Shown one piece after another: positions 4,812 to 4,850 of a DNA stretch of 50,683 nt. The position numbers and the translations under genes were made by a program. Origin of the DNA: a virus. A model generated the notes under the pieces. That model did not search any database. It was given only the letters and a program-made list of their open reading frames with translations, and was not told the DNA's origin. How positions within the stretch are numbered: position 1 is the stretch's first letter; each line of letters begins with the position of its first letter. The DNA lies in IMG/VR virus record IMGVR_UViG_3300047160_007712, positions 1 through 50,683 of that record. The stretch is one strand, 5' to 3'.

Positions 4812-4850
4812 AAAAAAAAAAAAAAAAAAAAAAAAAAAAAAAAAAAAAAA
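4812..4850. repeat. Uninterrupted A39 homopolymer (T39 on the minus strand)
   Basis: Counted directly: 4812-4850 are all A. TATATACATATA follows. Confidence 0.9.

Follow-up and report, generated by a model that had tools for sequence, protein, structure and literature searches.

A length-variable poly(dA:dT) tract within a conserved palindromic module, a candidate terminase recognition site, in uncultured phages

The 39 consecutive A residues at positions 4812–4850 of the IMG/VR virus record IMGVR_UViG_3300047160_007712 are a genuine, heritable, length-variable and positionally conserved poly(dA:dT) tract. We refer to the whole stretch of DNA that was analysed, 50,683 nt in length, as the window. 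Related genomes share a conserved palindromic module with various simple sequences at its centre; the tract is the most extreme of these, and we consider it very likely that the conserved tract lies within a cis-acting nucleoprotein site. For this site, terminase recognition is the best-supported reading and a replication origin is the main rival. To our knowledge, homopolymers of 20–40 nt are very rare in the genomes of bacterial viruses and are usually put down to assembly noise; here, one appears as a heritable, positionally conserved element in a broad family of uncultured, predicted podophages.

The GC content of the window was 58.5%, and its first 97 nt were identical to its last 97 nt, as expected of a circularly assembled genome with 50,586 unique bases. 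Profile matches pointed to a tailed phage that combines structural genes of T7-like type with replication genes of its own, from which we infer a circular podophage genome of about 50.6 kb. The structural genes encoded a portal (PF12236), a major head protein, tail proteins, a lysozyme and internal virion proteins, one of them of 1904 aa, and the replication genes encoded a PD-(D/E)XK exonuclease, a Sak4-like protein, a split family-A polymerase and a DUF3987 primase-helicase. No cultured close relative was found (TerL/PolA identities of 34–41%): the TerL was epsilon15-like, with 37–41% identity to the nearest cultured phages, and the best PolA match, Caulobacter phage Kuura, reached 34%. TerL had no sequence match in the PDB and no Pfam match, and thus gave no indication of the packaging type; nor did the literature searched give a firm answer on the genome ends of epsilon15-like phages. 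Positions 4000–6000 had no DNA similarity match among 50,697 phage records. A scan of GTDB genomes for the terS-like protein gave no match, and therefore no host or prophage context.

Plus-strand genes ran from 5107 to about 18.6 kb, and minus-strand genes ran leftward from 4570, round the circle, down to 17,889. The A39 tract sits at the single divergence point of the two transcription units, in agreement with the divergent promoters of the preliminary description. The genes of the leftward unit that matter most here are as follows.

4235..4570, minus strand: 111-aa conserved protein, the first leftward gene; function unassigned by homology
3359..3901, minus strand: 180-aa helix-turn-helix (HTH) protein, probable TerS from gene order and weak profile and fold matches
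45984..47492, minus strand: TerL, with its true start at Met119 of the long ORF

The 111-aa protein had no Pfam, PHROG or PDB-fold match (AlphaFold model, pLDDT 69). Downstream of its gene there is a terminator-like hairpin at about 4180–4220, and an Rfam scan of positions 4000–6000 returned only a sub-threshold hairpin match, on both strands, at the same place; no tRNA genes were found. The early ORFs scanned for them had no match in Pfam or PHROG, the first four rightward ORFs were not conserved even in the relative L042, and an exact-sequence look-up of the 152-aa, 109-aa and 214-aa ORF products found none on record.

The tract and its immediate surroundings comprise the following features.

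4812..4850, plus strand: A39 homopolymer, the poly(dA:dT) tract, read directly from the sequence
4851..4862, no strand: TATATACATATA, a (TA)n-type core beside the tract, read directly from the sequence
4867..4887, no strand: C-rich hairpin CCCTCCC-N7-GGGAGGG with a 7-bp stem and a 7-nt loop, containing a C9 run
4575..4898, minus strand: spurious poly-Phe ORF created by the tract, judged by its GC content at third codon positions (GC3) and the lack of homologues

The uninterrupted run of A in a genome of about 58% GC had been described exactly; it is bounded by T4811 and T4851, and TATATACATATA and the hairpin follow as reported. The only other homopolymer of 8 nt or more in the 50.7 kb is the C9 of the hairpin, and the next longest has 7 nt. 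By chance, 2e-22 A39/T39 runs would be expected if the bases were independent and 3e-19 in a first-order Markov model, in line with the earlier judgement of extreme improbability. Among the 50-bp duplexes of the genome, which have a mean of -75.8 kcal/mol (sd 4.5), none is weaker than the one at A39 and TATATACATATA, with -47.4 kcal/mol or about 6 sd below the mean in stability; the weakest 30-bp duplex likewise falls in this block. The poly-Phe ORF, already suspected of being spurious, had a GC3 of 0.36 against 0.65–0.78 in most real genes and no homologue among 5.8 billion proteins; this search likewise returned no variants in tract length.

The first question about such a homopolymer is whether it exists in the virus, and independent assemblies and relatives bear on it. 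In each of ten other ENA samples, a short MEGAHIT contig (L002–L011) encoded an identical 111-aa protein. Three of these contigs entered the tract and ended there, after A10, A10 and A28; two, oriented as in the window, ended in the unique left spacer or inner arm, and four within the left array. The remaining contig, L008, spanned the whole homopolymer as T41, with the C9 of the hairpin read as G8, and ended a single base (A) after T41. Closer relatives were found through the terS-like protein. A circular IMG/VR genome of 50,043 bp whose ends overlap by 127 nt (L028/L042) carried A21 followed by TAAATATATAGGTATAGGGG, with unique flanks on both sides and near-identical GATATCC arrays. Two NCBI metagenome contigs, of 50,659 bp (L039, JAWVHA010001569.1) and 49,993 bp (L041, JAWVGW010000967.1), had at least A33 and A27, respectively, at the same position, where both contigs end; in both, the tract is preceded by CTATATCC arrays. 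A fourth phage, L031, had TATATATATC-TTTTA-T21, that is, the homopolymer on the opposite strand. The preliminary description had proposed looking for a homopolymer at the same place in related genomes and had taken its absence from all of them as evidence against the tract; the search returned A21, A27, at least A33 and T21 there, in four related phages.

A chimeric join, or tailing at a DNA end, would also yield a homopolymer at which assemblies stop, and several contigs do end in or at the tract (L003, L004, L006, L039, L040 and L041). However, short-read assemblers are expected to break at long homopolymers, and the tract itself accounts for the breaks that assemblies of these phages show here. 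In the window and in L028/L042, there is unique phage sequence to its left and to its right, and L008 carries it inverted. The tract-bearing relatives come from separate ENA, JGI and NCBI projects and their flanks have diverged while the tract keeps its position, which shows that the homopolymer is inherited. An assembly or library artefact is effectively refuted by this recurrence in diverged phages with unique flanks, and we regard it as extremely improbable.

The tract lies inside a larger symmetrical structure, with a promoter to its right.

4697..4769, no strand: left inverted arm, with GGATATCY at 4698, 4709, 4720 and 4731, plus ATTAATGGATTAACAAAAAGTGACCC
4770..4884, no strand: unique centre between the arms, 115 nt, holding the weakest 30- and 50-bp duplexes
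4885..4957, no strand: right inverted arm, with GGATATCY at 4916, 4927, 4938 and 4949
4991..5001, no strand: additional degenerate site, CATGGGATATC, next to the early promoter on its upstream side
5016..5044, plus strand: rightward early promoter, TTGACA-17-TATAAT with TG, matching 12 of 12 positions of the sigma-70 consensus

The two arms, each of 73 nt and 115 nt apart, are 84% complementary, and the whole module is an imperfect palindrome of about 260 bp. The two iteron arrays said to flank the tract proved to be four GGATATCY sites per side at a spacing of exactly 11 bp. Across the genome the motif has 11 matches, all at the module, where 1.7 were expected. No other repeat array with at least three non-coding copies was found elsewhere in the window, nor was any array found in the early and replication region and near the 27-kb skew switch (5–27.5 kb). 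Because the arms are inverted, a single strand of the region is predicted to fold into one long hairpin with the tract in its loop (-48.9 kcal/mol, z = -10). The early promoter begins 166 bp from the A39 tract and is the only recognisable promoter there; an extra GATATC site about 15 bp upstream of its -35 element occurs both in the window and in the L028/L042 composite. TTGACA-type promoters were also found to the right of the module in L017, L021/L022, L031 and L042.

We then compared the module across relatives. Homologues of the 111-aa and 180-aa proteins gave about 25 informative loci, and nearly every locus with enough upstream sequence had inverted arms, of 30–86 nt, around a centre of 83–262 nt; arms and centres were measured in L012, L017, L019, L022, L023, L025, L029, L031, L032, L034 and L038, and the arm search in L035 and L036 found none. 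At most loci the arms visibly consist of three to four 11-bp repeats, whose sequence is lineage-specific. The module is located 0.7–1.5 kb upstream of the terS-like gene in relatives and about 0.9 kb upstream in the window, and is flanked on one side by the early promoter and on the other by the late operon, which begins with the 111-aa gene, the terS-like gene, terL and the portal gene.

The centres differ in sequence and tend to be simple. Six loci (L012, L019, L023, L025, L034 and L038) have a (TA)n core within a few nucleotides of the dyad centre, and four of them (L019, L023, L034 and L038) are pyrimidine-rich to the left and purine-rich to the right of this core. The centres of L012 and L022 contain (GT)n and (GA)n, that of L022 being (GT)n/G-rich; in L032 the centre holds (CT)n(CA)n, and in L017 it holds no more than GC hairpins. 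The L012 centre was identical in two independent samples (L013 and L014), and L015 and L016 carried a centre of the same type with small differences near the contig ends. An A/T homopolymer of at least 21 nt was found in the subclade of the window and in L031. The centre is the weakest duplex of the locus in L012, L019 and L023 and the second weakest in L025, but not the weakest in L017 and L022. L028 and L031 have G/C-rich runs beside the AT core, but the hairpin itself is not conserved. An exact-pattern scan of IMG/VR for the array gave one unrelated chance match only; a later scan for three phased GATATCC sites recovered L028 and five unrelated contigs, which have direct tandem arrays without poly(A). 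From this distribution, we take the palindromic module to be much older than the poly(A).

The comparison also bears on length and orientation. Between samples of the same phage we observed A39 against T41 and C9 against G8, and the tracts of relatives range from 21 to more than 33 nt, in agreement with the suggestion that the tract is prone to slippage. A 17-nt identity within the arrays, AGAGATATCCTATGGAT, links the left array of L008 to an inverted centre made up of the reverse complement of the right inner arm, the G8 hairpin, the TA core and T41, as an exchange between the arms would produce. Five other samples of the same phage have the orientation of the window, and in L031 the tract is on the opposite strand relative to terS. 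The centre thus seems not to be locked in one orientation, and L008 could represent either a real inversion or a template switch in vitro. These differences would be accounted for if the site were a programmed contingency element, in which slippage of the tract, inversion of the centre or both tune the site within a population. As a precedent, a report on Helicobacter pylori sabA describes a T-tract that tunes promoter output through DNA geometry (PMC4081817). We consider such programming quite improbable for the window. The 39/41 and 9/8 differences could be short-read homopolymer errors, and L008 could be a chimera that arose by template switching at an inverted repeat able to form a hairpin. 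Recombinase domains of the serine or tyrosine type were not found in the proteins scanned, which included part of the small ORFs. In addition, the tract lies in neither a promoter spacer nor a real ORF, and the distance between the arrays, 185 bp in the window and 202 bp in its closest relative L028, does not conserve helical phase. The latter two observations, together with the 166 bp that separate the tract from the only recognisable promoter, also leave without support the proposal that the tract acts as a phase switch of the divergent promoters.

Three other candidate functions were rejected. A protelomerase target did not fit the strongly asymmetric centre (A39) or arms that are only 84% complementary, and a large tyrosine-recombinase-like ORF was absent; for an attP site, no integrase was found. 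The minus strand had also been described as a U tract following a hairpin, but the gap between the stem and the U run is about 15 nt. A terminator on that strand was discarded: no unit runs into the tract, as both flanking units point away from it, the hairpin is not conserved in L028, and the site was not called by the terminator scan.

The gene that accompanies the module in these phages encodes a protein of 180 aa in the window, with an HTH at about residues 45–80 followed by a long helix. In most relatives, including L019, terL follows the terS-like gene after 90–260 nt and the portal gene comes next; in the window, a block of about 6 kb encoding signal-peptide-bearing proteins is inserted between the terS-like gene and terL. 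The protein had a weak match to the PHROG small terminase (E=0.03) and a match to LuxR/GerE-type HTH (E=0.19). Its best fold match was 2ao9, a Bacillus cereus prophage protein (prob 0.91, E=0.11), which we take to be a small-terminase-like ring. Gene order together with these weak profile and fold scores (E of 0.03–0.2) weakly suggests a TerS; overall, we consider this assignment probable. The window, L028, L039 and L041 share a near-identical recognition helix (SLAMIGxLK/R) and arrays of GATATCC or TATATCC, and phages with other recognition helices carry other repeats. Such covariation would be expected of any co-inherited DNA-binding protein. The 111-aa protein was rejected as the specificity determinant, as the window shares its type with L012 and its arrays with L028.

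The module lies next to the probable TerS gene, at the head of the packaging operon, and its position about 0.9 kb upstream of the terS-like gene makes a terminase site at least as likely as an origin. We tentatively read the module as a terminase recognition site of the pac or cos type, rather than an origin or an operator, and place this reading somewhat below an even chance. In this model, an oligomer of the 180-aa TerS-like protein would occupy the phased sites of the two arms; the intervening DNA would have to bend, loop or open so that TerL could act in or near the centre. The centre may thus be selected for physical traits, namely a deformable TpA core, the narrow minor groove of an A-tract and easy melting, and not for sequence or orientation. 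A relaxed, repetitive centre could drift by replication slippage and may have expanded to a homopolymer of 21–41 nt in the subclade of the window. If packaging proceeds from the module towards terS, the early promoter, 166 bp off, would lie on the end that is packaged last and ejected first, an arrangement that would suit a podovirus with T7-like internal core proteins.

Several points constrain this reading. A spacer that varies from 21 to 41 nt would fit an imprecise pac cut better than a precise cos cut, given that changes in the cosN–cosB spacing are harmful in lambda (PMC4856287). Where contigs end at the tract, as L039 and L041 do, a failure of assembly at the homopolymer explains this as well as a physical end would. 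Long uninterrupted poly(dA:dT) is stiff DNA, which sits awkwardly with a model in which the centre loops. We regard it as a long shot that the dyad centre marks the physical end or cleavage point of the genome, where slippage or reiterative synthesis would remodel simple sequences in a telomere-like manner. It is just as doubtful that variation in tract length and orientation within a population would, at such an end, tune packaging, entry or early transcription. If both held, the module would be a hypermutable, invertible cis-element in a lytic phage.

A bidirectional replication origin fits the local anatomy equally well. An initiator or helicase loader would bind both arrays, the duplex would open at A39 and TATATACATATA under negative supercoiling, and forks would leave both ways. 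Phased repeats stand beside an AT-rich, easily melted segment, as at iteron origins; the module is the only iteron-like locus of the genome, and its inverted sites surround an AT-rich core as in HSV oriS and archaeal oriC. The weakness of the centre in the window, L012, L019 and L023 points the same way, and the pyrimidine/purine symmetry of L019, L023, L034 and L038 would suit two helicases moving outward. The GC skew also changes sign at 4.5–5.0 kb. However, this switch coincides with divergent transcription, and by the usual convention its sign is that of a bacterial terminus and not of an origin; no origin-like features were found at the other skew switch, at 27.1 kb. A cognate initiator gene usually adjoins an iteron origin, whereas no initiator-like gene was found near the module, and the exonuclease, Sak4-like, PolA and primase-helicase genes are 6–13 kb away. 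What is conserved is the link with terS and not one with the replication genes; the centres of L022, L032 and L017 are not AT-rich, and in L017 and L022 the weakest duplex lies outside the centre. We therefore consider an origin possible but unlikely. The suggestion in the preliminary description that the tract is a DNA-unwinding element gains physical plausibility from the instability of the duplex, while the origin role that it implies stands only as the rival reading. If the module is an origin, it would show the build of herpesvirus and archaeal origins in a phage.

A transcriptional control region has to be weighed as well, since the module lies between divergent units. The 180-aa protein, whose HTH most resembles LuxR/GerE-type regulators, might be a late regulator instead of TerS; a regulator would coat and bridge the arrays, with the centre as spacer or hinge, and bridging would shut the early promoter, turn on the leftward genes or both. 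The extra GATATC site near the -35 element in the window and L028/L042 favours such control. The pac site of SPP1 overlaps promoters upstream of terS (PMC4737164), so that regulation and packaging recognition need not exclude each other. A regulatory role through the promoter-proximal site may thus coexist with packaging or an origin. As the main function of the module, control appears rather improbable, less so than programmed contingency and more so than an origin. The motif occurs nowhere else in the genome, unlike the sites of a general regulator; eight phased sites over 260 bp with a 115-bp centre go far beyond the needs of an operator; the arrays lie mostly outside the promoter; and the terS–terL–portal order argues for TerS.

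Known systems share single aspects of the module. In HSV oriS, the archaeal oriC with its ORB and DUE elements and the SV40 core origin, inverted initiator sites surround an AT-rich element, with a (TA)n or A/T tract at or near the dyad centre. The module differs in that no cognate initiator was found and that it is linked to packaging genes, and the centres of several relatives are not AT-rich. In plasmid R1 parC, two blocks of direct repeats phased at 11 bp lie around a centre that contains a promoter; the blocks are bound cooperatively by a small protein, and the element is the plasmid centromere. Unlike parC, the module has inverted repeats, and ParM-, ParA- and ParR-like genes were not found in the window. 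The P1 pac site has clusters of four and three hexamers at the ends of a site of about 160 bp, with cleavage and a bend in mid-site, and its repeats are Dam sites inside the pacA gene. It resembles the module in its short-repeat clusters around a centre, but this centre is neither a homopolymer nor another simple sequence.

In lambda cos, the repeated TerS sites of cosB (R3, R2 and R1) are arranged with an IHF bend at I1 between R3 and R2, such that R3 and R2 have their major grooves turned to each other, and packaging requires the poly-dA tracts of I2, which is located between the TerS sites and the place of the cut (PMC4856287). Both lambda cos and the module combine repeated sites with a nearby gene for an HTH small terminase, probable in the case of the window. 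In lambda, the cut has TerS sites on just one of its sides, whereas the candidate sites of the module lie on both sides of the centre; the A-tracts have 4 nt, compared with 21–41 nt in the window phage and its relatives; and lambda uses host IHF and has a critical cosN–cosB spacing, whereas tract length varies freely in the group of the window. In the module, the cut site is hypothetical.

In the pac site of SPP1, sets of repeats overlap promoters upstream of terS (PMC4737164), and the TerS of SPP1 and SF6 binds both sides of the cut, at pacL and pacR, by recognizing DNA shape and bendability (PMC4856287). Repeats near promoters upstream of terS and sites on either side of a centre are features of the module as well. 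The repeats of SPP1 are direct, however, and pacL and pacR have no common sequence, whereas the arms in the window are inverted; SPP1 also has no inverted arms, homopolymer or 11-bp lattice of palindromic sites. In herpesvirus pac1, a T-rich element flanked by G-rich runs is a recognition signal for the terminase (PMC13595911). The minus strand of the window, G9/GGGG followed by the TA core and T39, resembles it in composition only: the T element of pac1 is far shorter, and no homology of the sites is implied.

The TerS site of HK97 includes an uninterrupted 9-bp A-tract near the cleavage site, which is essential through DNA shape, and flipping its A:T pairs has little effect (PMC11331095). 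The tract is much shorter than the 39 bp of the window, HK97 has no flanking repeat arrays, and in its complex the TerS ring takes up the DNA in its channel (PMC11331095). The tolerance of HK97 to A:T flips parallels the indifference to orientation seen in L008 and L031. If the module is a packaging signal, terminase recognition tolerates or uses an extreme A-tract and a centre free of orientation, which bears on the debate over whether small terminases read the shape of DNA or its sequence.

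The two ends of the window (1-97 and 50587-50683) are identical over 97 nt, and the sequence is therefore a circular assembly with 50,586 unique bases. The gene that runs across the junction and its two neighbours are as follows.

49607-50586 joined to 1-2695, minus strand: 1224-aa repeat protein rich in Thr, Ser, Gly and Ala, crossing the window junction, with a signal-peptide-like N-terminus.
2871-3362 and 49033-49620, both minus strand: neighbours of the repeat protein, each with a signal-peptide-like segment at its start.

In the window, a block of about 6 kb containing the genes for these three proteins separates the terS-like gene, which encodes a probable small terminase, from terL. 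Because these two genes are adjacent in most relatives, the block looks, from gene order, like inserted cargo.

We also considered the 3′ side of the 111-aa gene, the first leftward gene beside the module of inverted repeat arrays.

4176-4225: GC-rich palindrome (GGCCCCGGGG...CCCCGGGGCC then AAAATTTT), directly past the stop codon of the 111-aa gene.

Beyond this palindrome lies an AT-rich stretch (4060-4150), and judging from these two features the 111-aa gene therefore looks like a separate small transcription unit of its own ahead of the terS-like gene. The same layout was found in the family locus L017, where the very AT-rich stretch spans about 90 bp (5050-5145 of that contig).

On the other side of the module, a repeated motif, CGCCACAAT(T/C)CCGCCACAATC, was found upstream of the first rightward genes in four family loci (L012, L023, L025, and L038), and in L038 it was present on the terS side too. 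A TTGACA-type promoter takes its place in the window, L017, and L021/L022, and the motif may represent a different promoter class.

Farther right, the gene for the family-A DNA polymerase is divided between two overlapping reading frames.

14035-15168, plus strand: first polymerase ORF, with a uracil-DNA-glycosylase-superfamily domain fused to a 3′-5′ exonuclease.
15120-16664, plus strand: second polymerase ORF.

Within the late operon, GC skew changes sign at about 27,100 (26,980-27,440), with internal-virion-protein genes on one side and a tail gene on the other; no repeats or AT-rich DNA were found at this switch.

When the same phage from another sample was examined (L008; ENA ERZ27255711, k141_2712203), positions 1-120 showed the left repeat array fused to the reverse-complemented right inner arm, followed by the hairpin (G8) and by T41, so that the centre lies in the orientation opposite to that of the window. 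Either the centre has truly been inverted between the two arms, or the contig is a chimera produced by template switching. In the contig L027 (1-330), the sequence departs from that of the family after the left array and goes on as low-GC, coding-looking DNA; this contig may be chimeric or a rearranged relative.

Five unrelated viral contigs from IMG/VR (L050, L052, L053, L054, and L055), one of which has 32% GC, contain GATATCC in direct tandem arrays with 11-bp spacing and up to eight copies. In L054 the array stands beside a second one, GTGTTGAACC x4. None of the five carried a poly(A) tract. The 11-bp GATATCC lattice seems to be a recurring binding-site design.

Another homopolymer, a run of 48 C, was observed at the contig end of the relative L022 (3438-3485) and is probably a poly-G read artefact. 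That run is terminal, whereas the poly(A) tract of the window is internal and flanked.
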